A stretch of DNA of 64,000 nt, taken from NCBI GenBank assembly GCA_022827185.1, contig JAJDTM010000002.1, positions 1,560 through 65,559 on the forward strand, given 5' to 3'. Within the stretch, counting starts at the first letter, position 1, and each line of letters begins with the position of its first letter. Shown piece by piece: positions 38,063-63,419 of the stretch. The notes below the pieces were generated by a model that saw only the letters and a program-made list of their open reading frames with translations, made no database searches and was not told the DNA's origin. Origin of the DNA: Candidatus Poribacteria bacterium (GTDB taxonomy: Bacteria; Poribacteria; WGA-4E; WGA-3G). The position numbers were made by a program, and so were the translations under genes.

Positions 38063-38067
38063 TACTT

Positions 38068-41643: not shown

Positions 41644-41681
41644 AGGCCCGGTAGGTTCGGTTTCCTAACCGAACCGGGCCT
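41644..41681. repeat. Imperfect hairpin aggcccggtaggttcggtttcctaaccgaaccgggcct, the intact version of the split element at 10750-10866
   Basis: Two arms ggcccggt..gttcggtt / aaccgaaccgggcc. Located just after the 40806..41582 stop. Confidence 0.55.
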
Positions 41682-41810
41682 GAGACACAAACTGTGTATA
41701 TTCCAAAATTTTCTTGAGTCCCGTAGGGACGCTATGTTTATAGCAGCTTTCAAGCAAAGCTCAAGCCCTGTAAGGGCGGCATGTTTATATCTATGTGAAA
41801 AATCACTAAA

Positions 41811-42590: not shown

Positions 42591-43064
42591 TTGCAGGTAC
42601 TTTATTGTCCCATTCCACACGTTACACGAAAACGACAGATAAAAACGGGCAAAATGTTGGGAACTTTGCTTCTCACGTTGTGCATCATGTATGATCATAC
42701 TTGTGGTTTCTCAAAACCCAATGCCAACGTGCTGTTTGTTTTCTCCAAATTTCTTTAGTATATTCCTATAATTACTCCCGTCTCTCAAAAAAATCCTTTC
42801 AAAAGTGTCCAAACGTCTTTCAGGGACATCCATTGTGTGTTTCCCTCCGTAATCGGGGTTTATCCTGCGTTCAGAACCCGATACTCGCAGAACAACTTCT
42901 AAAAATCCTGATTTTTTTGTTATTTTTTTCAAATGATGTGAGTTTTCCGTCCAAAACTTCGTCTTTAATAATAGAAGGTATGAACCGTATCGCCCTACGT
43001 AGTTTTACAAGACCCGGCATCTGATTAAGCCTTTCGGCGGATACGGACACGCCCCAACTGTTTA

Positions 43065-45602: not shown

Positions 45603-45611
45603 GCACATCGC

Positions 45612-45665
45612 CTGCGGATGTCAACGGCGATGGTGTTGATCCGTGACCTCGTCGCCATCGAAAAT
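45612..45665 (+). pseudogene. Frame-shifted dockerin remnant just 3' of the ECF-fusion stop
   Basis: gatgtcaacggcgatggtgtt encodes DVNGDGV, then a frame break, then DLVAIENN. This resembles the [20 protein letters not shown] dockerin repeats of neighbouring genes. Confidence 0.5.
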
Positions 45666-45721
45666 AATTTGGCGGAGAGACAAGCCAATTCTTACTACTT
45701 ATATGGAGAAGAATATGCCTT

Positions 45722-46567: not shown

Positions 46568-46675
46568 TATCCGTCTATTTTTCAAGCGTGTGGGCTTATT
46601 GTCAACCGTCCGGAACTCTCGTGGGTAGAGCAATTAGCATCCCACGATCTGTTTTTCTGCCGTGGGGAGTTCGGA

Positions 46676-47878
46676 GTGGATTGGATTCAAGCACCAGATC
46701 GCCTGGTTCTCACACTCAGTGAGGCCAAAGTGCGCGCAAAAGAAGGACGCGATCGGAATCCAAATATACTTCTCCTTGCCAGCATAGAATTTTATGGGGC
46801 ATCCCCAGAATCGCCTTATGCACTCAGAGATGAATCGGGAAATGTAATAATAGATCACAAATGGGATGGTGCTTTCGCGGACTTCAGGCATCCTGATATT
46901 CAAAAGAGGTTTATAGAGAAGGCACACGCGATTGCGCGATGCGGGCTTTTTGATGGAATCGCCATAGATCATTGGGGGAAACCTGGACTTGGAGATATGA
47001 CCTTAGAAGAAACTGTTGCCGCAAAAGATCGCATGATACAGGCCATTCGTGATGGTGTCGATGATGATTTCTTGATACTGGTAACGACGACGAACGAGAT
47101 TATTCCGACACAGCATCATGCGGAATATATCAATGGCTTTTTCATGGAAACTATTGAAGGTTATGAGGGCGGTTATACCTACGCAGGACTCGCTCACATC
47201 GAAAACACGCTGCTGTGGGCAGAAAAAAACCTCCGAGAGCCTCAAATAAACTGTTTGGCAGGTAGGGGCGTTAGGAGCGAACTGCTGGATAGTCCGAGAA
47301 ATCTACAATGGATGCGTCTATGGACGACAATGAGTCTGACACATTCTGATGGCTATGTCATGTTTACCATGGGTGGCAACCTTGACCATCCCGCCCACCC
47401 TTTTGAATTTTTGCCAGGTCATGCGGATTGGCATGCACAAGGCAAGCGTCACACTCACCAAAACAGCCACTACTGGTATGATTTCTGGGATGCTCCGCTG
47501 GGTCGTCCGATCGGTGGTGATGAAACCAAAGCACAGTTTTATGAGGATCGCGAGGGGTTGTTTATCCGAGAATTTACTAACGGCTGGGCGGTGTATAATC
47601 GCTCCGGCTCCGAACAACAGATTGAGTTTTCGGAAGAAGTCTCCGGCTGGGACAGTGGGGTGGCGCATCAACGCCAGCATACGTTGGCGGATTTGGATGG
47701 CGAGATTTATTTGAAAGCGGAAACCCCTCCCATTGCGGATGTCAATGGTGACGGGACGGTGAATGTCTTGGATCTGGTTATCGTCGCGAATGCGTTTGGG
47801 GAAGCAGCACCGGATTTGAATGGTGACGGGACGGTGAATGTGTTAGACCTTGTGCTGGTGGCGAATGCGTTTGAGTAG
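46676..47878 (+). CDS. Domain X plus a double-repeat type I dockerin (3' part of the split gene)
   Basis: Homologous to the C-terminal domain of the 43065 and 48186 proteins. Ends [46 protein letters not shown]. Confidence 0.6.
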
Positions 47879-48185
47879 GAAACACGCCAAGTTTTTCGCA
47901 GAAATGACCGATTTTCACTGAAAAATGGTGTTCGTGCGTCTAAAATCACATAGGTAGCAAGTTAGGTTATTCTAAAATGTCGAAACACTTGACGAAACTC
48001 AAGAGACTTGAAAAATATCAGCATTAGAATATTCCTTAAATGCTTCTGCTTAACGATTGCAGAAACCTCGCCCTTTAGGGCGGGGTCTATCACGACTTCA
48101 TTATACCAAAAGGGTTCTGTTTATACAAAAAGTTACGCGATTATTTATCAGAGTCACGTTATACAAACGAATGAGGTAAATCCCT

Positions 48186-50744
48186 ATGAAAATCAAGCCC
48201 TCTTTTTACTACAGTTTCCACCTTCTTTTTCTGATTCTCTATCTCAGTCTTACCCCTGTGCACGCCCAAGACTGGCTCCCTGACCCGGTGTTACGGAAAA
48301 CGATTCGGGAATCTCTGGGTCTATCGGCAAACACACCGCTCACAAAAGACTATATGCAACAACTGATACGTCTTGATGGAAATAACAAAGGCATCACGGA
48401 TCTCAGGGGTTTAGAGTTTGCGACGAACCTAAGAATCCTGCACTTGGGAGGTAATGAAAATAATATCACAGATATCAGTCCGCTTGCCAACTTAACAAAT
48501 CTTGTAGGGCTTCATATCTGGCGTGTTCGGCGTCACGACACGCATCGGGCACCCCTCGACATCCGTCCGCTCGCCAACCTCGTTAACTTAGAGGTGCTCT
48601 CTCTGGAGCGACAGGGACTTTCGGATATAAGCGTGCTTGCGAACCTGACAAAGCTTCATAAGTTAGCACTGACGCACAACAACATCTTGGACTTTAGCCC
48701 GTTAGCAGGATTGACGCATCTGCGGATATTGTGGATAAAAAACAACTGGGGGACGGATTTGAGTCCGCTCAAAGGGTTGAATATTACAGATTTTCGCTAT
48801 GACGAAGTGTGTGATTTCACATCACAAGGGGAGTCCGTCACTGCGCGTGTTGAGAACAGGACGTTTCCGTCGATAGTCGGGCTATTCCCGAAAGGGTCAA
48901 TAGAGGAGATGACCCGGTATGATTTCCATTATGGCACCCATTTCGGATTGTGGTGGAAGCGAACGGAAACCGAGCCGACACACGGCTTAGCGATTCGACG
49001 TTCAGGGGATATGGCGCAGGCGAGAGCGTACCGCCAACAGATGCTCCAACAGAATCCAAACATGTTGTTTTTTGTGGGGGTACCTTTGCTTAATTACAAA
49101 CCTTCCAATGCGGCAACGGCTTTTCCCGCAGATTCTGATTTTTGGCTGCGAGATCGCCAAGGGAATATCATCCAAAATGAGAATGATGCGTGGCTGCTGA
49201 ACATTTTGAACCCAGCGTTACAGGATGTTCAGATTGAAAGAATTGTAGGTTTTGCAAAGTGTGGGATTTTCGATGGTGCGCTGTTAGAAGGATTTACAAA
49301 TCATGGAATTGGTGCTGTGGGCAGCCAGTTTTACCCAGTCGTAACAGATGTGCCGTTAACGGAGGAAGCGATTATTGAGGCGTATCTCCGAATTCTAAGC
49401 GAGGTCCGCGCCCGCGTTCCTGAGGACTTTTTGATCGTCGTCAATGCTACGAGAACCAGACCGACCCGTTATGCGGCATACATCAATGGTAATGTGATGG
49501 AACCGGGTTGGGATTATTCCTACAAAGGACTTGCCGAGATTGAAAGCACTTTACTTTGGTCTGAGGAACATTTCCGGGAACCGCAACTGAATTGGGCACA
49601 AGGGTTTCTTATCACCTCGGAGCCCCCGGAGAGTCCTGGGAACCGTCAACGAATGCGTCTCTTTACAACGATGGGACTCACGCACTCTGATGGCTACATA
49701 AACGTCCATTATCATTCAGCGAAGTGGCAGCGATGGGGAGACATCGCTGAAAATTACTGGTATGACTTCTATGATGCCGACCTCGGCAAGCCGATTGGCA
49801 AAACAGCGCAACGCTGCGACGACTGCGACGGGCTCTTCGTGCGTGAGTTCACCAACGGTTGGGCGGTCTACAACCGGAGCGGCAAAGCACAGACGATCCA
49901 CTTACCCGTCAAAGCCACGGGTGTCGCAAGTGGTATCACAAACACCGAACACATCGTTCCAGATTTAGATGGCGAGATGTATCTGAAACAGGCACCGAGT
50001 GTGAATAGCATCGGCATTGTCACTGTGGTTGAGGTTGCGACCGGTGCGCCAGAGGAACCGGAATCCGAATGGATGCCGGATGCCGCCTTACGCGCAGTAG
50101 TTCGGAAGGAAATGGGACTCCCAACACATATCGCTTTGGAAAAATCCCGCATGCCACAGCTGATACATGTTGATGGAAATAACAAAGGCATCACAGACCT
50201 GACGGGTTTGGAGTTTGCGACGAACCTAAGAATCCTGCACGTCGGGGGGAATAAGAATCAGATAACCGACCTTCGCCCGCTTGCGAACTTGACGATCCTT
50301 GAGCATCTCTATATCTGGCGCACACCTCCAAAAGACCCCGCTTCGGTGAGAGTTCTTGACATCCGTCCGCTCGCCAAGCTCACCAACTTACATGCACTCT
50401 CACTGGCGGGAAACGGGATTACCGATATAGCCCTACTGGCGGGCATGAAGAAGCTCGTCAAACTCATCCTTACAGATAATCGGATTGAAGACTTTAGTCC
50501 GCTGGCTGGGCTGATGAGTTTACGAACGTTGAGGATTCGGAACAACCCCGCCACAGATTTCAGCCCACTTGCCGCTTTACCCCTTATTGAATTTCAACTT
50601 GATGCCGATGTCAACGCCGATGGCTTTGTGAATGTGCTTGACCTCGTTACCGTCGCGAATGCGTTTGGGGAAGCGGCACCCGATCTCAACGGTGATGGCA
50701 TCGTCAATATTCAAGATTTAATTATTGTCGCGAATGCGTTTTGA
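48186..50744 (+). CDS. Secreted protein: LRR, domain X, LRR and a C-terminal dockerin
   Basis: Signal peptide LFLILYLSLTPVHAQD. Two LRR blocks. Domain X motifs ([47 protein letters not shown]). Dockerin [45 protein letters not shown]. Confidence 0.75.
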   Translation: MKIKPSFYYSFHLLFLILYLSLTPVHAQDWLPDPVLRKTIRESLGLSANTPLTKDYMQQLIRLDGNNKGITDLRGLEFATNLRILHLGGNENNITDISPLANLTNLVGLHIWRVRRHDTHRAPLDIRPLANLVNLEVLSLERQGLSDISVLANLTKLHKLALTHNNILDFSPLAGLTHLRILWIKNNWGTDLSPLKGLNITDFRYDEVCDFTSQGESVTARVENRTFPSIVGLFPKGSIEEMTRYDFHYGTHFGLWWKRTETEPTHGLAIRRSGDMAQARAYRQQMLQQNPNMLFFVGVPLLNYKPSNAATAFPADSDFWLRDRQGNIIQNENDAWLLNILNPALQDVQIERIVGFAKCGIFDGALLEGFTNHGIGAVGSQFYPVVTDVPLTEEAIIEAYLRILSEVRARVPEDFLIVVNATRTRPTRYAAYINGNVMEPGWDYSYKGLAEIESTLLWSEEHFREPQLNWAQGFLITSEPPESPGNRQRMRLFTTMGLTHSDGYINVHYHSAKWQRWGDIAENYWYDFYDADLGKPIGKTAQRCDDCDGLFVREFTNGWAVYNRSGKAQTIHLPVKATGVASGITNTEHIVPDLDGEMYLKQAPSVNSIGIVTVVEVATGAPEEPESEWMPDAALRAVVRKEMGLPTHIALEKSRMPQLIHVDGNNKGITDLTGLEFATNLRILHVGGNKNQITDLRPLANLTILEHLYIWRTPPKDPASVRVLDIRPLAKLTNLHALSLAGNGITDIALLAGMKKLVKLILTDNRIEDFSPLAGLMSLRTLRIRNNPATDFSPLAALPLIEFQLDADVNADGFVNVLDLVTVANAFGEAAPDLNGDGIVNIQDLIIVANAF

Positions 50745-50965
50745 AATGGAGATTATATCTTATACTATGACAATCAAAGAAATATATCGTAAATCATTGT
50801 GGTTTCAGTTGCTCCTCGCGTCGGTTGTGGGCATGCTTGTCTATAATGCGTTTACCTATAACTTGAGAATTAAGAATTTACACGACTGCTGCCAAAATGC
50901 CAGCGTGGTTGCAAACCATCTCCTTTGTGAATGGCAGACCAGCAGTAGAAACGGAGATAAACTAA

Positions 50966-53080
50966 ATGCAACTAACTAAGAAACAAAACATTTTTATTTA
51001 CTTACTCATCTTTTGTGCGACACTATTCTTCGTATTTCCACTGATAACAAGTGCACAAACTGTTAACATTCCTGACGCGAATCTTCGCGAAGCAATCAAT
51101 GAGGCACTCGGTAAAGCATCAAATGCCCAGGTTACATTGAAGGAAATAGTGACGTTAACCCGCCTTACTGCGAATAACAGAGGTATCAGCGATTTAACAG
51201 GACTTGAAGTTGCGACAGGATTGGAGAGCGTAGAACTCCAGCATAATCAAATATCCGACTTATCCCCGCTCGCGGGGTTGATGAAACTGCGTGTTATACG
51301 GATGGGCAATAACCTTATATTTGATTTATCCCCGGTCGCAGGTTTAATCAACTTGGCAAGATTAGATATCTGGGAGAATTTGATTTCCGATTTGTCCCCG
51401 GTCGCAGGTTTAACCAACTTACTATCAATAAGTTTCGGGAGTAATTCGGTATTTGACTTATCACCCTTGGCGGGGTTAAGGAAGCTTGAGAGGATAAATA
51501 TGAGCCAAAACCCGCCAGCAGACCTCTCGCCCCTTTCAAAAATAATTGGTTTGACAGGTTTTCATTCTTGGGGCACCCCTATATTAGACCTCGCGCCTTT
51601 GGCGGAATTACCAAAACTCAGCGTCATAGATATCTGCGGGGGCGAGATATCGGACCTCTCCGCTTTAGCGAACGCGACAGGTTTGAAGGAACTGTATTTT
51701 GCTGGCAATCAGATCACGGACGTATCGCCGTTGGTGGGCTTAACAAATTTGACGAGACTGAATTTTGCAGAAAATGAAATATCGGACGTGTCACCACTTG
51801 CTGGATTAACCAACTTGACATGGATACGGATTAACCACAATCCAATATCCGATCTATCGCCTTTAGAAGGGTTAGGTATACCTATTGTTCACCATAATAC
51901 CCCGGCATTTCCACCGGGCGGTCCGAAAATCGAAGGACCATGGTTATGGGTACTTGTACCGGGGGAGCGTATTGGTGGTGGAGATTTGCTGGCAGAAGCG
52001 ACGGGTGGCACAGCGACAGAGGAGAAGGTTGCTACTGTTGGTGCTGCAGAGGGAAAGTCTGTTGGAGACAATGTTTGGGTAGCCGATAACATTACCGCGG
52101 TGGGACGCAATAACATCGGTGAAATGCTGAAACGCCAAGGCGTGGGAAACGACGGAGTCGTCTACGGTTCCACCACCTTGGAGTCACCACGAGAACAGGA
52201 AACAAAAATGTTCGTCGGCGCGCATGATGGTGTTGAAGTCTGGCTCAACGGGGCACTCATTCACCAGAAATCTGGTGGACATTGGGCGGAGGGTTACCAC
52301 ACCTTTTTTCCCGTTACGCTCAACGAAGGAACAAATGTGTTGTTAGTTGCTCTTGACAACCACCACGTTGATCAGTGGCGGGCATTTTTTGGATTTGACG
52401 TTGACACAGAATATACGGTAAATTCTCCGATTTCCCGAGCTCCATCTGAAATACCTGCTTATGATGTCAATGAGGATGGGCAAATCAGTATTCTGGATCT
52501 GATTCTGGTAGGTCAAGACTTGGGAAAAGCAAAGCCCACCAACGCGCGAACAGATGTGAATGGCGATGGAACTGTTAGTATCTCGGACCTCGTCCTTGTG
52601 GCACAACATCTCGGCGAAATAACAGGAATTCCTGCCTCGCCTTCCCCCTACACCTTACGCAGCATGGGGTTAGACGCGGCAACAGTCCACACGTGGATAG
52701 CACTTGCCGAGATAGAAAATGATGGCTCGCTCGTCTTCAAGCAAGCGATAGCGAATCTTCAACGGCTTTTAGCGTTGTTGATGCCCGAAAGGACAGCATT
52801 GCTTGTGAACTATCCGAATCCGTTTAACCCAGAGACATGGATACCCTACCAACTTGCTGAACCTGCCAAGGTCACTATACACATTTATGCGATGAGCGGT
52901 GCTTTGGTCCGGAAGTTAGATTTAGGACATCAGGCTGCTGGTATCTATAGTGAAAAGAACCGTGCAGCGTATTGGGATGGTCGCAACCAACTTGGAGAAC
53001 CTGTAGCGAGTGGTGTGTATTTCTACACGTTCACTACTGGCGACTTTACGGCGACGCGAAAAATGGTGATAAGGAAGTAG
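50966..53080 (+). CDS. Secreted protein: LRR, a roughly 180-aa unknown domain (domain Y), a dockerin and a T9SS-type C-terminal sorting domain
   Basis: Signal peptide. About 12 LRRs. Domain Y (GPWLWVLVPG...KSVGDNVW...SPREQETKMF). Dockerin DVNEDGQISILDL...[41 protein letters not shown]...VYFYTFTTGDFTATRKMVIRK. Confidence 0.75.
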   Translation: MQLTKKQNIFIYLLIFCATLFFVFPLITSAQTVNIPDANLREAINEALGKASNAQVTLKEIVTLTRLTANNRGISDLTGLEVATGLESVELQHNQISDLSPLAGLMKLRVIRMGNNLIFDLSPVAGLINLARLDIWENLISDLSPVAGLTNLLSISFGSNSVFDLSPLAGLRKLERINMSQNPPADLSPLSKIIGLTGFHSWGTPILDLAPLAELPKLSVIDICGGEISDLSALANATGLKELYFAGNQITDVSPLVGLTNLTRLNFAENEISDVSPLAGLTNLTWIRINHNPISDLSPLEGLGIPIVHHNTPAFPPGGPKIEGPWLWVLVPGERIGGGDLLAEATGGTATEEKVATVGAAEGKSVGDNVWVADNITAVGRNNIGEMLKRQGVGNDGVVYGSTTLESPREQETKMFVGAHDGVEVWLNGALIHQKSGGHWAEGYHTFFPVTLNEGTNVLLVALDNHHVDQWRAFFGFDVDTEYTVNSPISRAPSEIPAYDVNEDGQISILDLILVGQDLGKAKPTNARTDVNGDGTVSISDLVLVAQHLGEITGIPASPSPYTLRSMGLDAATVHTWIALAEIENDGSLVFKQAIANLQRLLALLMPERTALLVNYPNPFNPETWIPYQLAEPAKVTIHIYAMSGALVRKLDLGHQAAGIYSEKNRAAYWDGRNQLGEPVASGVYFYTFTTGDFTATRKMVIRK

Positions 53081-53117
53081 GTTGTCGCACTTTCAACCGA
53101 TAGTTAGGAGATTAACC

Positions 53118-56100
53118 ATGAGAATTAGTAAATACCTTTATCTGACAGTATTAATATTTATCGTATTAGGATTTGGAACCGCATCTGCGCAGCAGGATCT
53201 CGCGCAAGAGGCATACACTATCCTTCAAAAGAATTGTTCGCTATGTCATGGAGAACACGGCTCCTTTACCGAGGATTTGGTGCTTGAATACACATCACTC
53301 ATCGGGAATGGGGTTATTGTCCCTGGAAATCCTAATGCTTCGGAGTTCTATAAACGATTAATTGAGAATACACCCGAAAAACCGCGAATGCCGTGGGGAC
53401 AGCCTGCGTTGTCAGCGGATGCGCTTGAGACGATTCGTCAGTGGATTGCAGCGGGTGCACCGAATTGGGAGGTGCAATATGATGTCAACTTCATTACGAT
53501 GGATGCGATGCTTTCGGTGATTGAAGATCACGTCGCGTCGCTTTCGGCATTTGATCGTCCGTCCGCTCGCTACTTCACGCTGACGCATCTCTATAACGCT
53601 GGTGGAAGTCCTGAGGCACTTGATGCCTATCGGCGTGCACTCTCGAAGTTGGTGAATAGTCTCTCCTGGGGGTTTGAAGTGATCAAGCCAGAACCGATTG
53701 ACGAACAAGAGATGATCTTTTATATTGATTTGCGCCACTATGAGTGGGATAGAAACGAAGCGTGGACGCAGATTGAACGGGAATATCCCTACAGCATTGA
53801 ATTTGATTCGGAGACACAAGCGGGTCTGCACGAAAAACTGACGAATTTACGTACAGAAATGGACTGCGAAGTGCCGTTTGTCTATGTGGATTGGTTCCTT
53901 GCTAATGCGTCGTTACCACCGCTGTACCACGATATTCTGGACCTGCCAGAAACGGATCAGGAATTAGAGGAGCAACTGGGAGTCAATGTGACGCGAAATA
54001 TCAACAATGCTCCCGGGGTTCACGTCTGGCGTGCGGGTTTCCTCAAGTCGGGTGTGTCAGGGTACAACCGTGTTGTGGAACGGCACACCTCCGACTATGG
54101 TGCGTATTGGAAAAGCTACGACTTTGCGGGGGATTCGGACGTTCAGAATATTTTTATACATCCGCTGACTTTTAGACACGACGGTGGGGAGGTCGTGTTC
54201 CATCTGCCGAACGGTTTGCAAGGGTATTATATCTCTGATGCGTCTGGGAATCGGATAAATGAGGCACCAACGACGATCGTATCCAACCCAGCGGCAAGCA
54301 ATCCTGCCGTGCGCAATGGTCTCTCTTGTATCGGTTGCCACACAGAAGGCATGAAAACGTTTGAAGATGAGGTGCGTGCGGAGATTATGCTGCGGTTCCC
54401 TGAGGGACCGGTGAAGGATCAGGGATTGCGTCTGTATGTGGAACAATCAAAGATGGATGCGCTTGTGGCGAGGGACACAGCTCGTTACAGGGGAGCACTT
54501 GAAAAGACGGGTGGTGTGTTTGGTGGTACGGTTGAACCGGTACATCGGTTCTATGAGGAGTTTCAACGTCCTGTTGAGGCTGCACACGCTGCGGCTGCTG
54601 TCGGTTTAGAGACAGAGATGTTCCGTCAAGAGATTCGAGATAAACAGCGTTTACGGGACTTAGGTTTGGCGGGGCTATTGGAGGATAGGGGTGTGAGTCG
54701 GGATACATGGACCTCCAACTTTCCCGAAGTGATTTCGGCGCTGCATTCTCCCGACGATACAACAACACAGCCGGTCGATCCAGAAACTGACCTACGTCCT
54801 GGTGATTTAGTCTCTATTCCTGATCCGAACCTTCGTGCTGTGATAGAAAGGTTGCTCGACAAAGCCCCAGGTGCTTTGATTACGGCGGCGGATATGGCAA
54901 GGTTGACGCGGATTGTTGCCGATGATGCTGGGATTAGTAATTTGACGGGACTTGAGGCGGCAACGCAGTTGGAACGCATAGAATTTCGTCGGAATTCGAT
55001 ATCCGATTTATCTCCACTGAGAGGCTTAATCCGACTCAATAACATCAAGCTCCGGGGGAATCGGATAACCGATGTATCACCGCTTGCTGACTTAGTTCGT
55101 GTGGATTGGTTAGGACTTGAGGATAACGAGATAACAGATTTATCTCCGCTGAAGGGATTAACCAGATTAAACGGGATAGGGATTTCAGGCAACCCAATAT
55201 CCGATGTATCACCGCTTGCAAACTTGACCAGTTTAGAAGGCATCAACGCTTGGCGCACACCTATCTCGGATTTCTCATCCTTGGCAAAATTAACGAGATT
55301 CAGGTGGATAGGATTTGGTGATGATAAGTCGATATCAGCACTTCCATCACTGAAGGGATTGAAAAGTTTGAGACGGTTGGAAATTAACAACTGTAGCATC
55401 TCGGATCTCTCCGGATTGGCGGAATTGACACAGTTGGAATGGTTAGGATTGAATAATAACCAGATATCGGATATATCTCCATTGCGAAATTTAAGGGGTT
55501 TAGAACATCTGAATCTTAATGCTAACATTATCGAAGATGTATCGCCGCTTGCGAAGTTAACAAAGTTAAAACTTCTACATCTTGTGAACAACATTATCTC
55601 GGATGTATCGCCGCTTGCAGGATTAACTAACTTGGAACGGTTAGACCTCCGCAACAATGCGATATCTGACTTTTCACCTTTGGAAGGATTATTGGAGGAG
55701 ACATTTGTCAGAATAGAAGGTAACACGGGTGTTCTCCGGCGAGGAGCTCCAAAGATACAAGGGCCATGGTTGTGGGTGCTCGTGCCTGTGCCCGGGTCTG
55801 ATGCCTTCCGTAACATAGATTTGCTTGCACGAGCAAGTAATGGAGATATAACCGAGCGGGAGATCGCTACAAACGGTGCGACAGAAGGGAAGTCTGTCGG
55901 TGATAACGTCTGGTTTTCCGAGAAAATATCTACGGATAGGAACAACATCAGAACCATGCTGGGTGCCCTCGGTATGTTAGAAGAGGGCAGTCGCTCGAAT
56001 CTCGTCTACGGTTCGCTCACCCTTGATTCACCACGAGAACAACAGACAAAGATGTTTGCTGGGAGCGATGATCTGCATAAAGTCTGGTTCAATGGACAGT

Positions 56101-57755
56101 TGGTTAGCGAAGCTGTCCACGGAGGGACAAGTGGTGATTACCAGGAATCTTTCCGTGTTACGTTGAAGCAAGGAAAAAATGTGTTATTAGTTGCAATATA
56201 TGATTATGGGGGTGGATGGGGAGGACATTTTGGGTTTGCGCCTGATGCTGAATATACGGTCTTATCCCCTGACACCAGATTCTCCTTTTCCACAGCGGCG
56301 ACGCGAATTAAAGTTGGCGATAGGTTCACTGTTCAGTTCAAAACAAAAAACATTTCCGACTTAGCGGGATGGCGATCTGATATTACATTTGATCCCGCAG
56401 TGCTAAAAGTCAATAACGTCCGCGAGGGTAGTTTCCTGAAACAAGGTGGTGGACGCACCCACTTCTTGAAAGGCACGATTGATAATACGATGGGTAGAAT
56501 CGCCGATGTCGGTTCTGCACGGATCTCTGAAGGTGGAGTTAGCGGTGAAGGTGCCCTGTTGTCAATTACATTCACGGCAAAGGTGAATGGTGAGAGCCGA
56601 TTGTCACTACGAAAATTTCAAGCTGGTTCCAGTACGGGTGATGCAATTTCTGATCGACCCCCTGATATGATTATTACTGTCGAGGATCCGTCGTCCTTAG
56701 ATGTAAGTGATGGCCCATTTTCCCTTTCTACGGATGTAACACCTGTTCGCCTTGGTAATACCTTTAACCTTCTTCTCAAAGCGGAAGATGTTACGGATTT
56801 AGCGGGATGGCAGACTGATATTGCGTTTGACCCCGATGTGCTTGAAACCGTTGAGGTGAACGAAGGCGATTTTCTGAAGGCGGAAGGCGGGGATACCTTC
56901 TTTTTTCAAGGCGCGATTGATAACACGGCAGGTAAAATTACAGGTCTCAGCGCAGCGAAGTTGAAGGGCGGTGGTAACGGCGCAGGTATGCTACTATTGG
57001 TTACATTCAAGGCGAAGGCTGTCGGGGAAACACGGGTGACACTTAGCAATTTCTTTGCTGGCTCCAGCAGCGGCGAAACTATCTCTTCAGAAGTTCCCGA
57101 AATTAGGATCACTATTGAGGATCGCGCGTTTTCTGCTTCGGATGTCAATCAGGACGGTCGAGTGAACGTTCAGGATCTAATCGTGGTTGCACAACATTTA
57201 GGTGCTGATGCGTCTGTCAACCGCCGAGCGGATGTCAATGGCGATGGAACTATTAACGTTTTGGACATCATCGTTATCGCACAAAATTTAGGTGAATCAA
57301 CAGCGGCTGCGCCTTCCAATGTTGCTGCTATAGACAGTTTAGAATTATATCCAGCAATGGTTCAGGCATGGATAGCGGAGGCAGAGGCTAAGAATGACGA
57401 TTCGATTGCCTTCCGACAGGGTATCGAAAACCTTCAACGACTTTTAGCGTCGCTGCTTCCTGAAAAGACAGTGTTGCTGCCGAACTATCCGAACCCGTTC
57501 AATCCCGAAACATGGATACCCTATCATCTTGCTGAAGCTGCGGATGTGACAGTGCATATCTATGCTACCGATGGGGTCTCGGTTCGGACGTTGGCGTTAG
57601 GGCATCAGGCTGCTGGCACCTATGAGCGTCGTAGCCGTGCGGTGTATTGGGACGGCAAAAACGAGGTCGGTGAGCCTGTCGCGAGTGGTGTCTATTTTTA
57701 TACCCTAACGGCAGGTGATTTCACTGCTACGCGGAAACTGTTGATACGGAAATAG
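53118..57755 (+). CDS. Giant secreted scaffold-like protein: PSCyt1-like CxxCH domain, a second CxxCH, LRR, domain Y, two cohesin-like modules, a dockerin and a T9SS-type CTD
   Basis: ATG 53118 with aggag RBS and signal peptide. CSLCH at about 53235 followed by ...PRMPWGQPALSADALETIRQWIAAGAP, the PSCyt1 pattern. CIGCH at about 54325. LRRs 54820-55700. Domain Y 55740-56280. Cohesin-like beta-sandwich modules at about 56290-56690 and 56700-57120 (DLAGW..DI.FDP.VL). Dockerin at 57130-57300. CTD at 57480-57755. The track ORF starts at TTG 53082, one base after the previous stop. Confidence 0.75.
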   Translation: MRISKYLYLTVLIFIVLGFGTASAQQDLAQEAYTILQKNCSLCHGEHGSFTEDLVLEYTSLIGNGVIVPGNPNASEFYKRLIENTPEKPRMPWGQPALSADALETIRQWIAAGAPNWEVQYDVNFITMDAMLSVIEDHVASLSAFDRPSARYFTLTHLYNAGGSPEALDAYRRALSKLVNSLSWGFEVIKPEPIDEQEMIFYIDLRHYEWDRNEAWTQIEREYPYSIEFDSETQAGLHEKLTNLRTEMDCEVPFVYVDWFLANASLPPLYHDILDLPETDQELEEQLGVNVTRNINNAPGVHVWRAGFLKSGVSGYNRVVERHTSDYGAYWKSYDFAGDSDVQNIFIHPLTFRHDGGEVVFHLPNGLQGYYISDASGNRINEAPTTIVSNPAASNPAVRNGLSCIGCHTEGMKTFEDEVRAEIMLRFPEGPVKDQGLRLYVEQSKMDALVARDTARYRGALEKTGGVFGGTVEPVHRFYEEFQRPVEAAHAAAAVGLETEMFRQEIRDKQRLRDLGLAGLLEDRGVSRDTWTSNFPEVISALHSPDDTTTQPVDPETDLRPGDLVSIPDPNLRAVIERLLDKAPGALITAADMARLTRIVADDAGISNLTGLEAATQLERIEFRRNSISDLSPLRGLIRLNNIKLRGNRITDVSPLADLVRVDWLGLEDNEITDLSPLKGLTRLNGIGISGNPISDVSPLANLTSLEGINAWRTPISDFSSLAKLTRFRWIGFGDDKSISALPSLKGLKSLRRLEINNCSISDLSGLAELTQLEWLGLNNNQISDISPLRNLRGLEHLNLNANIIEDVSPLAKLTKLKLLHLVNNIISDVSPLAGLTNLERLDLRNNAISDFSPLEGLLEETFVRIEGNTGVLRRGAPKIQGPWLWVLVPVPGSDAFRNIDLLARASNGDITEREIATNGATEGKSVGDNVWFSEKISTDRNNIRTMLGALGMLEEGSRSNLVYGSLTLDSPREQQTKMFAGSDDLHKVWFNGQLVSEAVHGGTSGDYQESFRVTLKQGKNVLLVAIYDYGGGWGGHFGFAPDAEYTVLSPDTRFSFSTAATRIKVGDRFTVQFKTKNISDLAGWRSDITFDPAVLKVNNVREGSFLKQGGGRTHFLKGTIDNTMGRIADVGSARISEGGVSGEGALLSITFTAKVNGESRLSLRKFQAGSSTGDAISDRPPDMIITVEDPSSLDVSDGPFSLSTDVTPVRLGNTFNLLLKAEDVTDLAGWQTDIAFDPDVLETVEVNEGDFLKAEGGDTFFFQGAIDNTAGKITGLSAAKLKGGGNGAGMLLLVTFKAKAVGETRVTLSNFFAGSSSGETISSEVPEIRITIEDRAFSASDVNQDGRVNVQDLIVVAQHLGADASVNRRADVNGDGTINVLDIIVIAQNLGESTAAAPSNVAAIDSLELYPAMVQAWIAEAEAKNDDSIAFRQGIENLQRLLASLLPEKTVLLPNYPNPFNPETWIPYHLAEAADVTVHIYATDGVSVRTLALGHQAAGTYERRSRAVYWDGKNEVGEPVASGVYFYTLTAGDFTATRKLLIRK

Positions 57756-57826: not shown

Positions 57827-57871
57827 TATGAAACACCCTCATTTAATTGAGGGTGTTTCATTATTCGCGGA
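57827..57871 (+). terminator. Strong hairpin terminator after the scaffold gene
   Basis: atgaaacaccctca-tttaat-tgagggtgtttcat, a perfect 14-bp stem, followed by tattcg. Confidence 0.5.
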
Positions 57872-57960: not shown

Positions 57961-58316
57961 CTTCATTATATACAAATTTCATCTCCGATCTTTCCCGTCG
58001 TCAATATTTTGGATCTTATCCTCATTTCATCTTTACCTCGTCCTCATCTCATTCTCATTACTCAACATTTAAGCGGATAAAAATAAAAACGTCTGTAGCG
58101 TTGTGTGCTAACACTTCCAGACTTTATATAATCTGCGGTTTATCAGGTCCCTGAAACCCGACCTGCCTTCGGGATAACTGTTAAAAAAATAGAAATTTTC
58201 ATTTTTTTTCAGATTATGCACGTTTTCCGTTCCCAAATTACGTCTTTAGAAATCAAGCGGTAAAAAAATCATTTTGTTTAACAATTTTCGTTTAATATCT
58301 GAAGGGAGAAAAAAAG

Positions 58317-58880
58317 ATGTCAAAAACTTTTAGTTCGGAAACTTTCAAAAAAACATTCGATGCCTATATCCTAAGGTGGCATATATCGGAAGCCGTCTTA
58401 TTGATTTTGGCTTTCTTACCTTTCTTGGCGTACGGCATAGCGTACTATTTGGATCTTTCATGGATACCTATCTTGGGTGACATAACTTTTGGGGCAATTT
58501 CATCTGGTATTGTTTCTTTTGGAGCCATCTCTTTTGGATTTGTTTCGATTGGGGCCATATCTTTCGGTGTCATAGCTATTGGCAGTTCGTCTTGCGGGAT
58601 CATAGCAATCGGCGCAATATCCGCGGGGGTTTTTGCTTTTGGAAATGCCTCCGCTGTTGGACTTATCGCTATTTCTACAGGTTCAACTGGGATAACTCCC
58701 CGGGTCGGTGGCACTGCTGTTGGCGTTATAGCGATCGGTCAGCATGCAAGCGGCGTATACGCGCTCTCCTATGAAAGAAAAGACAATAGCGTTTATCAGT
58801 TTTCACCGGAACGCCAAGATATAGAGGCTGTCACACTCTTTACCCGCTGTCTCCGAAAGTTTAAGAAAGCGTATGCATAA
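58317..58880 (+). CDS. Small membrane protein with tandem glycine-zipper repeats (GAISxG x about 10)
   Basis: GAISSGIVSFGAISFGFVSIGAISFGVIAIGSSSCGIIAIGAISAGVFAFG. The DNA is periodic over 58490-58650. Confidence 0.5.
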   Translation: MSKTFSSETFKKTFDAYILRWHISEAVLLILAFLPFLAYGIAYYLDLSWIPILGDITFGAISSGIVSFGAISFGFVSIGAISFGVIAIGSSSCGIIAIGAISAGVFAFGNASAVGLIAISTGSTGITPRVGGTAVGVIAIGQHASGVYALSYERKDNSVYQFSPERQDIEAVTLFTRCLRKFKKAYA

Positions 58881-59090: not shown

Positions 59091-61160
59091 TTGGAGGTAA
59101 AAAAGATGATCAGCAGAATTAAACGCGCCGTGGTTGTATTACTTATCCTTAGCAATTTCTCTCTGGCGTTCGCTGCACCGCCTAAAGTGACACGTTTTAC
59201 ACTCAGTAATGGTATCCGTGTTGTCAGTCTCTACGTTGAGGCATCCACGGATGTCATTATCCTCAGTTATTTGCCCCTCGGACTTGTCACTGATGGGAAA
59301 ACAAAGGCACAATGGAGCCATCTGATTGAACACTTGACACTCCGAACGACGGGACCGATTAATTACCCTTCAAGTAGTGCAGAAACGATGGCTGATAACA
59401 TGCGCTTGGAATCTATCGGGAACACCGATAACTGGACGCAGGGTTTGGAACGCCACGCAAAGTGGCTTTCGGGGTTACCGTTTTCAGAGGAGAGTTTAGC
59501 CGAGGAGTTACCGAACGCTTTGTCCGAGATTGACTTTACTGAAACGAGATTGGCGACCCACAAATGGGCATCCGCTGCATGGAACCAAGTTTTTCGACAC
59601 GGTGAAACGGATATATCCATGCGGGGTGATGTTCAATCCGCACAGTTAGGTGAATTACAAGAATACCGAGATCGGCATTTAGTCCAAGCAGATCGGGTGC
59701 TTTTGTGTGTCATCGGTGGAGTTGACTCGGAAACACTGCAGCCCGTAATGGAAACGCAACTCGGAACTATCAACCTAACAGCAAAGACGCTGCCACCAGC
59801 AACAGTAACATCGGGGGTGGTGAAAGACCGAACTGCCGCTTGGGATATCAATGTAACCCACTACATAGAAACTTACGCGATACCCCACTCGGAAGATGAA
59901 GATTATCCGGCGTTGTATATAACGAACGCGCTCCTGAACTTAGGACTCATGCAGGATACCCAACTGAAGGAATTAACGGGTTTTGTGCTCTGCAGTGTTG
60001 ATCTCGTTACACCTGAACAGACCTATCTACAGATCAGTGCTTCACTCAAGCCAGATACAGATATAGAAGTGGTTAAGCAGCGCATTAAACAGTTGATAAA
60101 CCGGCTCAAGCAGCCAGAGAACAACGCGCAGGTCGCTATGGCTGCCCCGTCACTTTCCAGGCAATTCAGTTCACCACTGGATATAGAGATGATGAAGCAA
60201 CAAAAACCGGCAGGTGTGTCAGAAACCATGATGCTTGGTAACATCGGTCTATGGTGGGGGATGCTGGAATATCAATATGGTGAGATTTTACCGCAGCTCG
60301 CGGGGGCATTTGCCAAGGTCTCTGCGGCTGATGTTGCCGATGTTGTCAATCGGTATTTAACCGAAGATGCGCGGATGACGTTAGTTCTCACACCACATGA
60401 TGCGTTTCTTGATGAATTCGGCGCGGTTAACGAAATTGAGATAAAGCAACCCGAACCGCCGCCTGCGGAGCCGATGCCGGAAGCGAGTGAAGCAGACATG
60501 ACGAGAGCCAAAGAAATCCTCGCTGCAGCAGTTGACGCACACGGTGGACTTGAGAAACTGCAAGCAGTCAAGAACATCGTCATGGAGGGGCACGCAACAG
60601 CCAATTCACCCACAGGACCGCAAATAGAAGGCACATCATACTACGTCCACCCTGACAAATTTAGACAAGATTTGAAGATGCCGCAAGGTGAAACGGCTTA
60701 CGTCTTTGATGGCACTTCTGGATTCGTGTTGACACCCATGGGGGTTCAACCAATACCACCACAGATGGCTGCCACTTTTAAAGATGCGGTTTTCCGAGAG
60801 CCGTTGTGGCTACTGACGAACCTCTCACAAAACGACATCCCGATCCAGTATGCTGGCACAGAAGACCTACAAGGTAAACCTACGTCTATTCTGCTGCTTC
60901 CGCAGCCATCTGGCGAGATGATGAAACTCTTTGTGAGCGAGGATACGCATTATATTGTGAAAATTGCCTATCCTGATTCCTCTCAAGGTATTACTGTTAA
61001 TCGGGAAACGCTCTTGAGTGATTACCGCGATGTTGATGGCGTTAAAGTCGCGTATCATGTTGTGCAGAACATAGAGGGGCAGCTCTTTAGCGAAAGCCGG
61101 ATAACACGTATTGCGTTGAACGCTGAACTTGAGGAATCGCTATTTCAGGAACCGAAGTGA
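59091..61160 (+). CDS. Secreted M16 (pitrilysin/insulinase) family peptidase-like protein with an intact HxxEH motif
   Basis: Signal peptide. TRFTLSNGIRVV M16 N-terminal signature. HLIEH inverted zinc-binding motif at about nt 59323. Two-domain length (689 aa). Confidence 0.65.
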   Translation: MEVKKMISRIKRAVVVLLILSNFSLAFAAPPKVTRFTLSNGIRVVSLYVEASTDVIILSYLPLGLVTDGKTKAQWSHLIEHLTLRTTGPINYPSSSAETMADNMRLESIGNTDNWTQGLERHAKWLSGLPFSEESLAEELPNALSEIDFTETRLATHKWASAAWNQVFRHGETDISMRGDVQSAQLGELQEYRDRHLVQADRVLLCVIGGVDSETLQPVMETQLGTINLTAKTLPPATVTSGVVKDRTAAWDINVTHYIETYAIPHSEDEDYPALYITNALLNLGLMQDTQLKELTGFVLCSVDLVTPEQTYLQISASLKPDTDIEVVKQRIKQLINRLKQPENNAQVAMAAPSLSRQFSSPLDIEMMKQQKPAGVSETMMLGNIGLWWGMLEYQYGEILPQLAGAFAKVSAADVADVVNRYLTEDARMTLVLTPHDAFLDEFGAVNEIEIKQPEPPPAEPMPEASEADMTRAKEILAAAVDAHGGLEKLQAVKNIVMEGHATANSPTGPQIEGTSYYVHPDKFRQDLKMPQGETAYVFDGTSGFVLTPMGVQPIPPQMAATFKDAVFREPLWLLTNLSQNDIPIQYAGTEDLQGKPTSILLLPQPSGEMMKLFVSEDTHYIVKIAYPDSSQGITVNRETLLSDYRDVDGVKVAYHVVQNIEGQLFSESRITRIALNAELEESLFQEPK

Positions 61161-61226
61161 ATCGGAATGATATGAAGTATTAGCAGGAATTCAGTCGTTT
61201 GTGTTGATGCATTATGGAGAGTTCTG

Positions 61227-63419
61227 ATGGATAAAGACGACGTTCAGTTGATTCATAGCACCTTGTCTGGCGACGATGAGGCGTTCGGTACCTTGGTTCA
61301 AAGATACCAAAAGAGTGTTCACGCCTTGGCGTGGCGGAAGATCGGTGATTTTCATTATGCTGAGGAGATTACGCAAGACACTTTCCTTCAAGCTTATGAG
61401 AAACTCTCGACACTCAAGAATCGCAATCAATTTGCCGGGTGGTTGTATGTTATCACCAATAATCTATGTACCGATTGGCTCCGACGGAAAAAACCTGCGA
61501 TGCAACCGCTGGGGGATGCGTCTGTGACAGCAATAGATAAGTTAACCTATGAGCGTTATGTATTGGAACAACGTGAGAGAGAAGTAACTGAGCATCGTCG
61601 TGAAGTCGTCAAACGACTCCTGGACAAATTGCCAGAGAGCGAACGTACTGTCGTAACGCTCTACTATCTCGGCGAGATGACCACCAAGGAAATTGGCAAA
61701 TTCTTGGGGGTATCGGCGAACACAATTACGAGTCGGCTTCGGCGGGCGCGGGAGCGTTTACAAACGTCAGATGAACGCTTGATTAACGAAACGCTCGGCG
61801 GTTGGCAATTGTCTAACAATCTATACGAGAACATCATGCGGGAGGTTGCTGATATAAACCCGGTATCGCCACCGACTGGAAAACCGTTGTTACCGTGGAT
61901 GGCTCTTAGTACGGCTACGGTTCTGGTTGTATTGCTGCTCGGTGTGAGTCATCAATATCTTGCGAGATTTCAGAGACCGTATAGTTTCGAGGCACAGTCC
62001 GAACCGACTATTGAAATTATTGAGGCGGCTGTTATTCTTGAGACTGACGCAAAACCGGCTATCCGCAATCAAATCGGACGGGCTGCCACCCCCAATAAAA
62101 ACAACAGTGTCGGTTCACAGATTTCTGAGGATCTTGAGGCACCTAATGCTTCTGAGGATTTCGCTACGCTTTTTGCTGCTGATGCCACCCCTGAAGTGAC
62201 CCGTTTCACTTTAAGCAACGGCATCCGTGTTGTCAATCTCCACGTTGAGAATTCCACAGATGTCATTATCCTCAGTTATTTGCCCCTCGGCCTCGCCACT
62301 GACGGGAAAGCAAAAGCATATTGGAGCCACCTCATTAATCATCTAACATTCCAAACCATGGAACCGATTGACTATAAGACAGGTAGCGCGGAGACGTTGG
62401 CTGACAATATACGCTTGGAGTTTATCGGTAATACCGACAACTGGACACGGGGTTTAGAACGCCATGCTCGATGGCTTTCTGAACTACCTTTTTCAGCAGA
62501 AGGTCTCGCTGAGGCACGCCCGAATGCCTTACGCCAGTTTGACTATATTGAAGAGAACTTGGCAACACATAAGTTGGCTTACGCTGCGTGGAACCAAGTC
62601 TTTCGGCATGGTGAAACCGATATCCGCATGCGTAGTGGCGTTCAATCGGCGCAACTCAGTGAACTCCAAGCGTATCGCGATCGACATTTGGTCCAAGCAG
62701 ATCGCGTCCTTTTGTGCGTCACTGGTGGCATTGATCCCGAAATATTGAAAGAGACTATGGAAAAACAACTCGGCGTTATCAATTTAACCGAAAAAACGCT
62801 TCCGCATCCAACAGTCCCTCCAGAGATAGCGAAAGATCAAAACGCTACTTGGGATATCAACGTAACCCACTATATGGAAACCTACGCGGTACCACACTCT
62901 AAGGACGCAGACTATCCGGCATTGTATATAGCGGGTGCACTGCTGAGTTTAGCATTCATGCAGGATACGCAATTGAAAGCATTGACAGGTGGTGCTTTCT
63001 GTAACCTTGACCTAATCACTCCAGAAGGGACTTATTTACAGATCAATGTTTCGCTGAAGCCGGATGCAGATATAGGAAAGGTCAAGCAGCGGATTGGTCA
63101 GTTGATAAACCGGTTAAAGCAACCCAAAAACAACGCGCAAGTCGCTATGGCTGCTCCCTTTTTCGCCATGCAATTCAGGGCACCCTTGGATGTAAAGAGG
63201 GTAATGCAACAGCAGCCTGTGGGCGTGTCAGAAACTATGGTCCTTGGTAACATCGGTTTACAGTGGGGAATGCGGGAATACCAGCACGGCGATGCCTTAT
63301 CCCAACTTGCAAGTGCATTTGTCAACGTCTCCGCGGCGGATGTTGCCAACGTCGTCAACCGCTACCTAACCGAAGATCGCCGGATGACGTTAGTTCTCAC
63401 GCCACGCGCCGTGGAATGA
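61227..63419 (+). CDS. Single-chain fusion: ECF sigma factor, one TM helix and an M16-like domain with HxxNH (catalytic Glu replaced)
   Basis: The sigma and TM module is about 70% identical to the 43065 gene (HALAWRKIGDFH.AEEITQDTF, QYL.RFQRPYSFEA.SEPTI.II.A.V.LETDAKPA). The extracytoplasmic part is about 80% identical to the N-terminal half of the 59091 protein, but HLIEH becomes HLINH (gaa to aat at about 62327). Confidence 0.75.
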   Translation: MDKDDVQLIHSTLSGDDEAFGTLVQRYQKSVHALAWRKIGDFHYAEEITQDTFLQAYEKLSTLKNRNQFAGWLYVITNNLCTDWLRRKKPAMQPLGDASVTAIDKLTYERYVLEQREREVTEHRREVVKRLLDKLPESERTVVTLYYLGEMTTKEIGKFLGVSANTITSRLRRARERLQTSDERLINETLGGWQLSNNLYENIMREVADINPVSPPTGKPLLPWMALSTATVLVVLLLGVSHQYLARFQRPYSFEAQSEPTIEIIEAAVILETDAKPAIRNQIGRAATPNKNNSVGSQISEDLEAPNASEDFATLFAADATPEVTRFTLSNGIRVVNLHVENSTDVIILSYLPLGLATDGKAKAYWSHLINHLTFQTMEPIDYKTGSAETLADNIRLEFIGNTDNWTRGLERHARWLSELPFSAEGLAEARPNALRQFDYIEENLATHKLAYAAWNQVFRHGETDIRMRSGVQSAQLSELQAYRDRHLVQADRVLLCVTGGIDPEILKETMEKQLGVINLTEKTLPHPTVPPEIAKDQNATWDINVTHYMETYAVPHSKDADYPALYIAGALLSLAFMQDTQLKALTGGAFCNLDLITPEGTYLQINVSLKPDADIGKVKQRIGQLINRLKQPKNNAQVAMAAPFFAMQFRAPLDVKRVMQQQPVGVSETMVLGNIGLQWGMREYQHGDALSQLASAFVNVSAADVANVVNRYLTEDRRMTLVLTPRAVE

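Follow-up and report, generated by a model that had tools for sequence, protein, structure and literature searches.

A candidate one-component transmembrane sigma factor of Candidatus Poribacteria with a pseudo-M16B peptidase as its ectodomain

Sigma factors of the extracytoplasmic function (ECF) type can be joined with their sensor in a single protein, as in the sigma/anti-sigma hybrids IutY of Pseudomonas putida (ECF243) and SCO4117 of Streptomyces coelicolor (ECF52), for which proteolytic release has been reported or proposed (PMC8999054). In Clostridium (Acetivibrio) thermocellum, the RsgI proteins combine a conserved juxtamembrane periplasmic domain with interchangeable sensors (CBM, GH10, peptidase-like) that resemble modules of the regulated secreted enzymes, and the S1C peptidase-like module of RsgI9 acts as a binder (PMC12203970). 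Signalling through RsgI occurs by proteolysis (PMC12203970; PMC10556640). Here, we describe a locus of Candidatus Poribacteria that shares traits with both systems. It lies in a stretch of 64,000 nucleotides of contig JAJDTM010000002.1 (assembly GCA_022827185.1, positions 1,560 to 65,559 of the forward strand), hereafter the window, from whose first letter all coordinates are counted. Gene A of this locus encodes a secreted M16B-type peptidase that is predicted to be active, and gene B, directly downstream, encodes an ECF sigma factor fused via a transmembrane helix to a close paralogue of that peptidase lacking the catalytic glutamate. An earlier reading of this DNA (the original prediction) had noted the loss of the glutamate and had suggested that the fusion senses the substrate of its active neighbour.

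Like IutY and SCO4117, protein B unites an N-terminal ECF sigma domain, a transmembrane segment and an extracytoplasmic sensing part in one polypeptide. Unlike the ECF52, ECF53 and ECF243 hybrids, which have a FecR-like or zinc-finger/ZAS anti-sigma domain before the membrane, B has none that we could recognise, and its sensor is a peptidase homologue whereas those of IutY and SCO4117 are FecR-type or carbohydrate-binding. With RsgI, B shares a cassette in which a constant juxtamembrane part is followed by a variable ectodomain mimicking a secreted enzyme. The sigma factor of the RsgI system, however, is a separate protein and belongs to the SigI family instead of the ECF family, and the peptidase involved is of type S1C and not M16. 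The juxtamembrane domain of RsgI is autoproteolytic and SEA-like, whereas the corresponding segment of B, about 40 amino acids, is too short for an assignment and no homology was found for it. A dead protease paralogue serving as signal receptor together with a related active protease has a precedent in CspC and CspB of Clostridioides difficile (PMC4619724). Those proteins differ from A and B in being subtilisin-like, in acting in spore germination, and in having neither a transcription-factor fusion nor a membrane span. Active and inactive copies encoded side by side are also typical of heterodimeric M16B proteins (MPP alpha/beta, Sph2681/Sph2682 of Sphingomonas, PA0371/PA0372, TTHA1264/1265, YmfF/YmfH), in which one of two adjacent genes has the HxxEH motif and the other does not, and the model of A shares their two-lobed fold. 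In the present pair, by contrast, active and inactive copies share 72% identity, and a transmembrane helix links the inactive one to a sigma factor. In the literature searched, we found no paper linking ECF factors with insulinase-type or M16 domains, and the main text of the ECF reclassification paper makes no mention of peptidase extensions, WD40 or Poribacteria. ECF factors with transmembrane extensions, modular sensors mimicking enzymes and pseudoprotease receptors were thus known before, whereas the design of a sigma factor fused to a pseudo-M16B domain apparently has not been described.

The two genes and their parts are as follows, all on the forward strand.

59106..61160, +, gene A: secreted M16B-type peptidase, predicted active, with an extra C-terminal domain
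59106..59174, +, signal peptide of A, Sec type, MISRIKRAVVVLLILSNFSLAFA / APP with cleavage AFA/A, read from the sequence (hydrophobic amino acids 5-28)
59319..59333, +, HLIEH of A: two zinc-binding His and the catalytic Glu (codon GAA, 59328-59330)
59505..59528, +, EELPNALSE segment of A, placed by HMMER alignments: the first Glu (59505) is the Glu of the M16 'E(R/K)' motif, the last Glu (59526) the third zinc ligand
60402..61157, +, C-terminal domain of A, about 250 amino acids (252), with a weak LolA-like signal
61227..63419, +, gene B: ECF sigma factor, transmembrane helix, juxtamembrane segment and pseudo-M16B ectodomain in one polypeptide of 730 amino acids
61227..61781, +, ECF sigma domain of B, regions 2 and 4 (PF04542, PF08281, PF04545, PF07638; TIGR02937 at 1.2e-30)
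61881..61955, +, single transmembrane helix of B, approximately amino acids 219-243 by a Kyte-Doolittle scan (helix 225-247 in the AlphaFold2 model)
61965..62078, +, conserved periplasmic juxtamembrane segment of B, RFQRPYSFEAQSEPTIEIIEAAVILETDAKPAIRNQ, common to sigma fusions with unrelated ectodomains
62178..63407, +, pseudo-M16B ectodomain of B (72% identical to A; PF05193; dN/dS 0.148 against A)
62328..62342, +, HLINH of B, catalytic Glu replaced by Asn (codon AAT, 62337-62339)
62514..62537, +, ARPNALRQ segment of B: helper Glu replaced by Ala (62514), third zinc ligand Glu replaced by Gln (62535)

The N-terminus of B has the composition of an ECF (group 4) sigma-70 factor, with the sigma-2 and sigma-4 regions only. 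Its amino acids 1-180 match the Sigma70_r2, Sigma70_r4 and ECF domains, with the Pfam models above their cut-offs and TIGR02937 at 106 bits versus a cut-off of 42.9. The family of B is annotated in databases as 'sigma-70 family RNA polymerase sigma factor', that of A, again from Candidatus Poribacteria, as 'insulinase family protein'. The same architecture of approximately 730 amino acids recurs in more than 118 clusters with 64-94% identity, all named ones from Candidatus Poribacteria, which excludes that the fusion arose by chance or misassembly. 'Partial' forms of B with 639-650 amino acids are start-miscalls resulting from a frameshift (L002) or a deletion (L001).

A and B share 72% identity over 417 amino acids (BLASTP), and the contrast between HLIEH in A and HLINH at the aligned position of B, both read from open reading frames on the forward strand, was confirmed. 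So were the nearly identical flanks: WSHLIEHLT of A (59313-59339, encoded by TGG AGC CAT CTG ATT GAA CAC TTG ACA) corresponds to WSHLINHLT of B (62322-62348). The replacement, described before as a one-codon change from GAA to AAT, does concern a single codon but comprises two nucleotide differences within it. HLIEH indeed represents the canonical inverted M16 motif HxxEH of the N-terminal lobe, which in M16 enzymes is followed, at a distance of about 65-80 residues, by the third zinc ligand Glu in an E-x6-E motif. The sequence of A alone matches the M16B protease 5EUF of Helicobacter pylori at E=7e-4 and the family profile does so at E=1.4e-12, with HLIEH aligned over HMLEH, and EELPNALSE over ERQVVAEE (helper Glu and third zinc ligand). 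The MPP-beta-like 9g9t_D falls in the same register with HFLEH and EKHVILRE, though its E-value of 0.73 is not significant alone. The helper Glu of A is E139 and its third zinc ligand E146 (E141 when numbered from the ATG start discussed below). B, in turn, retains the zinc-binding His residues H368 and H372, whereas its third ligand position is Q437 and its helper position A430. The downstream zinc-ligating Glu expected in both copies is thus present in A and missing in B, and the assumption that the zinc ligands are kept in B has to be given up.

In sequence, and in the two-lobed alpha/beta fold of M16 subunits (about 400-430 amino acids), A has all that is expected of an active M16B peptidase, and its activity is predicted on these grounds. 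Both proteins match PF05193 (Peptidase_M16_C, the C-terminal lobe), which is above the cut-off in A. The Pfam scan did not detect the N-lobe model PF00675 in A or B, indicating that the N-lobe of A is divergent. Structural modelling, which the original prediction had proposed, was informative for one of the two proteins. The AlphaFold2 model of A has a predicted local distance difference test score (pLDDT) of 70-95 across the M16 part and retrieves with Foldseek the M16B subunits 5euf, 3ami, 3eoq, 4nnz and 3hdi (E=1e-21 to 1e-17, TMt 0.61-0.71), as well as MPP and core proteins of complex III (overall E range 1e-21 to 1e-16). The model of full-length B, in which an autoinhibitory contact of the helix following the sigma domain was sought, was uninformative (pLDDT 44).

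The loss of the catalytic site extends across the family. Of the 116 free copies in an alignment of 240 members, 113 have the catalytic Glu, whereas the 124 sigma-fused ones all lack it and have Asn (106) or Met (18) instead. Two of the free-copy exceptions are truncated gene calls of fused proteins. Judged from this distribution, the difference between A and B at the catalytic Glu is not a matter of chance. The remaining site residues follow the same direction with different degrees of loss: the first zinc His is found in 116/116 free and 102/124 fused copies, the second in 115/116 and 77/124, and the third-ligand Glu in 113/116 and 30/124. Both Glu residues of the E-x6-E motif are conserved in 113/116 free copies and the full HEH..E..E pattern is intact in 108-113 of the 116, while only about 5 of the 124 fused copies keep all three zinc ligands. 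One fused subclade (17 clusters) has N-M-R in place of H-E-H. A screen of all 409 columns of the domain for residues invariant in one clade and missing in the other yielded the catalytic Glu alone. The ectodomain of B thus lacks both the catalytic Glu of HxxEH and the complete set of zinc ligands of an active M16 enzyme.

The fused clade is nonetheless well conserved. Between A and B, the ratio of nonsynonymous to synonymous substitution rates (dN/dS) is 0.148, with a saturated dS of approximately 1.3, and mean column conservation is 0.835 in the fused versus 0.822 in the free clade. Conservation of the fused copies spans the whole 409-amino-acid domain, C-terminal half included, and relaxation is limited to two windows that hold the catalytic-site residues. 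By these measures, the ectodomain of B is a long-lived pseudo-peptidase under purifying selection in which the catalytic loss itself is maintained; the pseudo-enzyme status put forward in the original prediction therefore holds (catalytic Glu absent in 124/124, dN/dS 0.15), and the domain can be classed among the non-peptidase M16 homologues, with the predicted M16 fold and purifying selection kept and catalytic residues gone. Recent duplication followed by neutral decay was ruled out by the same saturated dS (~1.3) and dN/dS (0.15). Pervasive gene conversion between A and B, considered as an explanation for the few fixed differences, was only weakly supported, same-genome pairs being slightly more similar (0.670 versus 0.652). 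The most striking free copy resembling a fused one, P0090, is an A/B deletion hybrid in a locus without a sigma-fused B (see below).

A conserved but non-catalytic fold could mean that the ectodomain has been repurposed for something unrelated to peptide binding, either to bind a non-peptide cue or to serve as an inert plug in the periplasm that controls the sigma factor through its unfolding or turnover. The metal site indeed decays progressively in the fused clade, up to the N-M-R form of the 17 clusters, the peptidase-like sensor of RsgI9 binds a polysaccharide and not a peptide (PMC12203970), and relatives of B with the same membrane cassette carry non-enzyme domains (WD40, Kelch, BNR, LRR). 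Yet a domain of 409 amino acids that is conserved as highly as its active paralogues, C-terminal half too, sits uneasily with such a role, and the tight link with an active M16 gene, together with a second M16 gene found behind the same promoter motif in another locus (L052), points to a peptidase-related function. We consider a repurposed scaffold unlikely.

Instead, we propose that the dead M16B ectodomain of B is a sensor that controls its own operon via the tethered sigma factor, a reading that in our judgement has an even chance of being right. The ectodomain would be the input module, having kept its fold and the peptide-binding surfaces of the M16 clamshell, and would act as a dimer, as M16B proteins do. 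It may capture, without cutting it, a peptide or unfolded-protein signal that A degrades. Occupancy would then lead to the release or activation of the membrane-tethered sigma factor, most likely by regulated proteolysis at the juxtamembrane/transmembrane cassette. The freed sigma factor would transcribe the operon from the promoter TGCACGTTTT-N10-ATTACGTC, yielding more A, B and a small membrane protein (mem187), and removal of the signal by A would close a negative feedback loop. Trapping of substrate is known from catalytic-Glu mutants of M16 enzymes. The E73Q mutant of MPP beta was crystallised with a bound substrate peptide (1HR8, among the structural matches of the A model), showing that an M16 site without its general base can hold a peptide uncut. 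Proteolytic activation of B is suggested by analogy with the IutY/ECF52 hybrids and the RsgI anti-sigma factors.

The organisation of the operon is in line with such a receptor. Upstream of A, two further elements are found.

58217..58244, +, ECF-type promoter-like motif TGCACGTTTT-N10-ATTACGTC, 73 nucleotides 5' of mem187
58317..58880, +, mem187, an open reading frame for a hydrophobic protein of 187 amino acids with repeated G-x-I-S-F-G-like hexads

The motif has a single match in the window and none in 100 shuffles even if three mismatches are allowed. It is conserved in L002, L003, L005 and L006, and aligning the upstream regions revealed a fuller conserved element, ATGCACGTTTTC-N7-AAATTACGTCTTTA (58216-58248). 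An exact scan for TGCACGTTTT-N10-ATTACGTC over one genome per species (185,579 species) gave 47 matches, 46 of them from Poribacteria; about 40 stand immediately ahead of mem-A-B, A-B or B. ECF promoters typically have a CGTC in the -10-like part, as is the case here. Matches resembling sigma-70-type promoters or terminators were no commoner across the operon region than in shuffled sequence. The motif would presumably be recognised by the sigma domain of B, and its genomic distribution supports, but does not prove, an autoregulated unit with the M16 peptidase as its main output. The protein mem187, hydrophobic at amino acids 16-47 and 58-119 and with no match in Pfam or NCBIfam, heads the operon in about half of the genomes, with same-position orthologues in L002, L005 and approximately 12 genome loci; it may regulate the tethered sigma factor. 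In one genome (L020), the promoter motif also occurs at a second site, where it is followed by a paralogue 40% identical to mem187.

The regulon may extend beyond the operon. In IRC4_bin_14, whose operon has no A (L049), a distant canonical M16 gene lies behind the motif in L052, and this enzyme, with PF00675, PF05193 and GMAHLLEHLY, looks active.

L052:2-4734, reverse strand, genes led by the motif: a membrane-anchored protein of 240 amino acids, the distant M16 peptidase, two small His/Asp-rich proteins and a TonB-dependent receptor

These genes are possible further members of the regulon, in which case the His-rich proteins would hint at metal handling.

Across the other Poribacteria loci, the gene order is (mem187)-A-B, A-B or sometimes B alone, and A lies immediately upstream of B in approximately 25 of about 29 informative loci. 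This arrangement under one promoter in most genomes also fits the main rival to the receptor model, one just as natural in the light of M16B biology, in which the ectodomain of B is the non-catalytic subunit of an M16B heterodimer with A. Tethered in this way to the protease itself, the sigma factor would provide feedback on the enzyme level by reporting how much A there is or whether A is occupied; alternatively, the A:B clamshell would be the working, membrane-bound enzyme. The structural neighbours of A include such active/inactive heterodimers, namely 3amj (Sphingomonas), 4nnz (PA0371-PA0372), 7v4y (TTHA1264/1265), 9a7y (YmfF-YmfH) and MPP alpha/beta, and at 72% identity the ancestral dimer interface is likely retained. 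The same 72%, however, is far more than one would expect of such a pair, as the known inactive M16B subunits have, to our knowledge, diverged from their partners much further. Moreover, B is intact and conserved where the adjacent A has been deleted (L006, L016, L049, L009), which indicates a role of the ectodomain that is independent of an adjacent A, and A and B do not co-vary: over 24 genomes, the correlation between A-A and B-B identities is only 0.38. We therefore regard the partner-subunit explanation as possible but doubtful.

Several of our observations speak against the receptor model as well. The weak correlation just mentioned is one of them. In L010, L047 and L037, the B ectodomains are 89-94% identical to that of the window while the A proteins reach only 68%, 76% and 88%, so that exchange or divergence of A appears not to be tied to its sigma partner; this uncoupling weakens the notion of a specific ligand shared by sensor and enzyme. 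The peptide nature of that ligand is in any case presumed. By inspection only, the Arg/Tyr pair with which M16 enzymes bind substrate could not be found with confidence in A or B, and the fused clade has not kept the zinc site, so the ectodomain may bind something else if binding needs the metal. On the side of transcription, the spacing of 19 nucleotides between CAC (-35-like) and CGTC (-10-like) exceeds the usual 16-17 nucleotides of ECF promoters by 2-3. The motif is retained in L054, where sigma-B was lost via an A/B hybrid gene, and in L043 it precedes a paralogous sigma factor; another sigma factor may thus read it, and cross-recognition by paralogues is possible. Finally, amino acids 181-320 of B contain no anti-sigma domain recognisable with Pfam or NCBIfam, and there are only about 40 residues between region 4 and the transmembrane helix, which bears on how the tethered sigma factor would be held inactive.

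The membrane-proximal part of B bears on the question of release. Since a sigma domain has to be cytoplasmic, the ectodomain is presumably periplasmic. Between the helix and the ectodomain runs a linker of about 70 residues with low model confidence and partly low complexity, of which the juxtamembrane segment, with a conserved span of approximately 40 amino acids, is modelled as a low-confidence coil. M16 enzymes cut unstructured peptides held in their chamber, and A might therefore be the site-1 protease of B, cleaving its periplasmic linker (amino acids ~285-317) or its juxtamembrane segment so that intramembrane proteolysis sets the sigma factor free, with the dead ectodomain as a dock for A. 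Activation of the sigma/anti-sigma hybrids by proteolysis (PMC8999054) would agree with this. However, the cassette including the juxtamembrane segment occurs on many unrelated ectodomains with no M16 partner nearby, which argues for a common release mechanism that does not depend on A. Operons with B alone exist, and the wiring would give a positive feedback with no evident input signal. Hence, we find a role of A as site-1 protease very unlikely, and under the receptor model the cleavage of B would rather be a general property of the cassette.

The cassette is indeed widespread. Using amino acids 181-310 of B (window 61767-62156) as the query of an exhaustive HMMER search, with clustering at 50% identity, we found at least 251 clusters of proteins of 400-1280 amino acids (P0239-P0387), nearly all with the cassette at approximately positions 181-310; the named members are all Candidatus Poribacteria. 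The ectodomains sampled comprise BNR/sortilin, WD40, Kelch and Reg_prop propellers, GHL15, CarboxypepD_reg with a C-type lectin, Big_5, a redoxin with SPTC for CxxC, and a transglutaminase core with its Cys-His-Asp intact. B is therefore best regarded, from its sequence relationships, as one member of a modular family of predicted one-component transmembrane sigma factors, and this larger family likewise is apparently undescribed. A second member is encoded in the window itself, surrounded by the following elements.

43065-45602, +, second sigma-transmembrane fusion of 845 amino acids (sigma-LRR): ECF sigma domain, transmembrane/juxtamembrane cassette, and an ectodomain of leucine-rich repeats (LRR) and GHL15
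42936-42967, paralogous promoter-like motif ATGTGAGTTTTC...CTTCGTCTTTA ahead of the sigma-LRR gene
45722-46567, 46676-47878 and 48186-50744, secreted LRR/GHL15/dockerin genes 3' of the sigma-LRR gene

Amino acids 1-313 of B, which cover the sigma domain, the helix following it, the transmembrane helix and the periplasmic segment RFQRPYSFEAQSEPTIEIIEA.V.LETDAKPA.R.Q, are 58% identical to the sigma-LRR protein. The products of the secreted LRR/GHL15/dockerin genes 3' of it, in turn, share 37-47% identity with the sigma-LRR ectodomain. The motif ahead of the sigma-LRR gene differs from the operon motif in both the -35-like and the -10-like part and is conserved before the orthologue in L009.

These parallels raise the possibility of a more general scheme, to which we give only tentative credence. 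Poribacteria would fit sigma-transmembrane cassettes with an ectodomain copied from the secreted protein under control, selection would kill the enzyme copies in the sensor only, and in the M16 case a clamshell formed with itself or with the active paralogue would trap an uncut peptide and thereby trigger release of the sigma factor. Two simpler generalisations were rejected. That every cassette sigma factor stands beside a paralogue of its ectodomain is true for two of three cases (M16 and LRR/GHL15), as the redoxin fusion (L055) has no such neighbour. Nor are all enzyme-like ectodomains dead, since Cys-His-Asp is intact in the transglutaminase fusion, unlike the CxxC of the redoxin fusion, which reads SPTC.

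If the receptor model is right, the locus represents a compact solution to sensing the outside, in which a secreted enzyme was duplicated, disabled catalytically and joined by one helix to the sigma factor that switches on the active enzyme. It would then be a natural counterpart of the 'substrate-trap' M16 mutants made in the laboratory, and, if the scheme extends to the family, 'effector-mimic' sensing would be a general principle that has not been described for sigma factors. The family also offers a clean evolutionary test case, a single column, that of the catalytic Glu, separating more than 110 predicted active from more than 120 dead copies, and B would join the ECF sigma factors that carry their own sensor. 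The other cassette proteins, with their many ectodomains, may further explain how secreted eukaryote-like proteins (LRR, WD40, Kelch) are regulated in uncultivated sponge symbionts. The sigma domain of B and its candidate cognate promoter could become an orthogonal one-protein transmembrane switch for synthetic biology.

Some features of gene A deserve separate mention. Its open reading frame opens at TTG 59091 and ends at 61160 (689 amino acids counted from the TTG). The original prediction let the protein start there, but the true start is probably ATG 59106, as the homologues all begin with MI(S/N)RIK, five codons downstream, the Trp of the motif being residue 70. The C-terminal domain of A is found in only about 19 of 114 free copies. 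It matches PF17131 (LolA_like) at E=1.1e-3, under the family cut-off, has no match in the PDB or NCBIfam, and is modelled unreliably by AlphaFold2 (pLDDT <50). In L027, L035, L039 and L050, this domain is approximately 91-92% identical, while the M16 parts are only 66-84% identical, which suggests either a recent spread or a very strong constraint.

The loci also record rearrangements between A and B. In L006, a remnant of the 3' end of A (..DKRMTLILTQRAK*) persists between the promoter motif and B (L006:7362-8000), showing that the lineage once had A and deleted it later; the site of its B ectodomain is the most degenerate (N-M-R for H-E-H). P0090 (L054:4001-5305), a 'free' M16 protein of 434 amino acids, consists of an A-like N-terminal third with signal peptide and HLIEH and of C-terminal two-thirds that are about 95% identical to the fused-type ectodomain of P0149, and looks like a deletion product of unequal recombination between A and B. 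In L003, an AT-rich insertion of 1.3 kb (L003:6658-8000), within which a gene for 169 amino acids is called, parts A from B and shares a repeat of about 70 bp (ATACCATTTCTAAATAATAACTTCTCATTAAC...) with the region upstream of A (L003:4910-5353).

Upstream of the operon, a perfect 13-bp inverted repeat, ATGAAACACCCTC-N7-GAGGGTGTTTCAT, forms a strong hairpin at 57828-57861, 3' of an LRR/cohesin-like gene of 1557 amino acids (53082-57755), and is probably the terminator that parts this gene from the mem-A-B operon. Further upstream, window positions 36361-42590 hold a block conserved in Poribacteria (compared with L001-L006), which encodes a thiamine pyrophosphate (TPP) enzyme, an AP_endonuc_2-family protein, a pectate-lyase-2-like protein and two more AP_endonuc_2-family proteins. 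This block adjoins the M16 operon directly in other genomes, whereas in the window approximately 15 kb with the sigma-LRR gene and secreted LRR/GHL15/dockerin genes, including ones with type IX secretion system (T9SS) tails (43065-57755), are inserted between the two.

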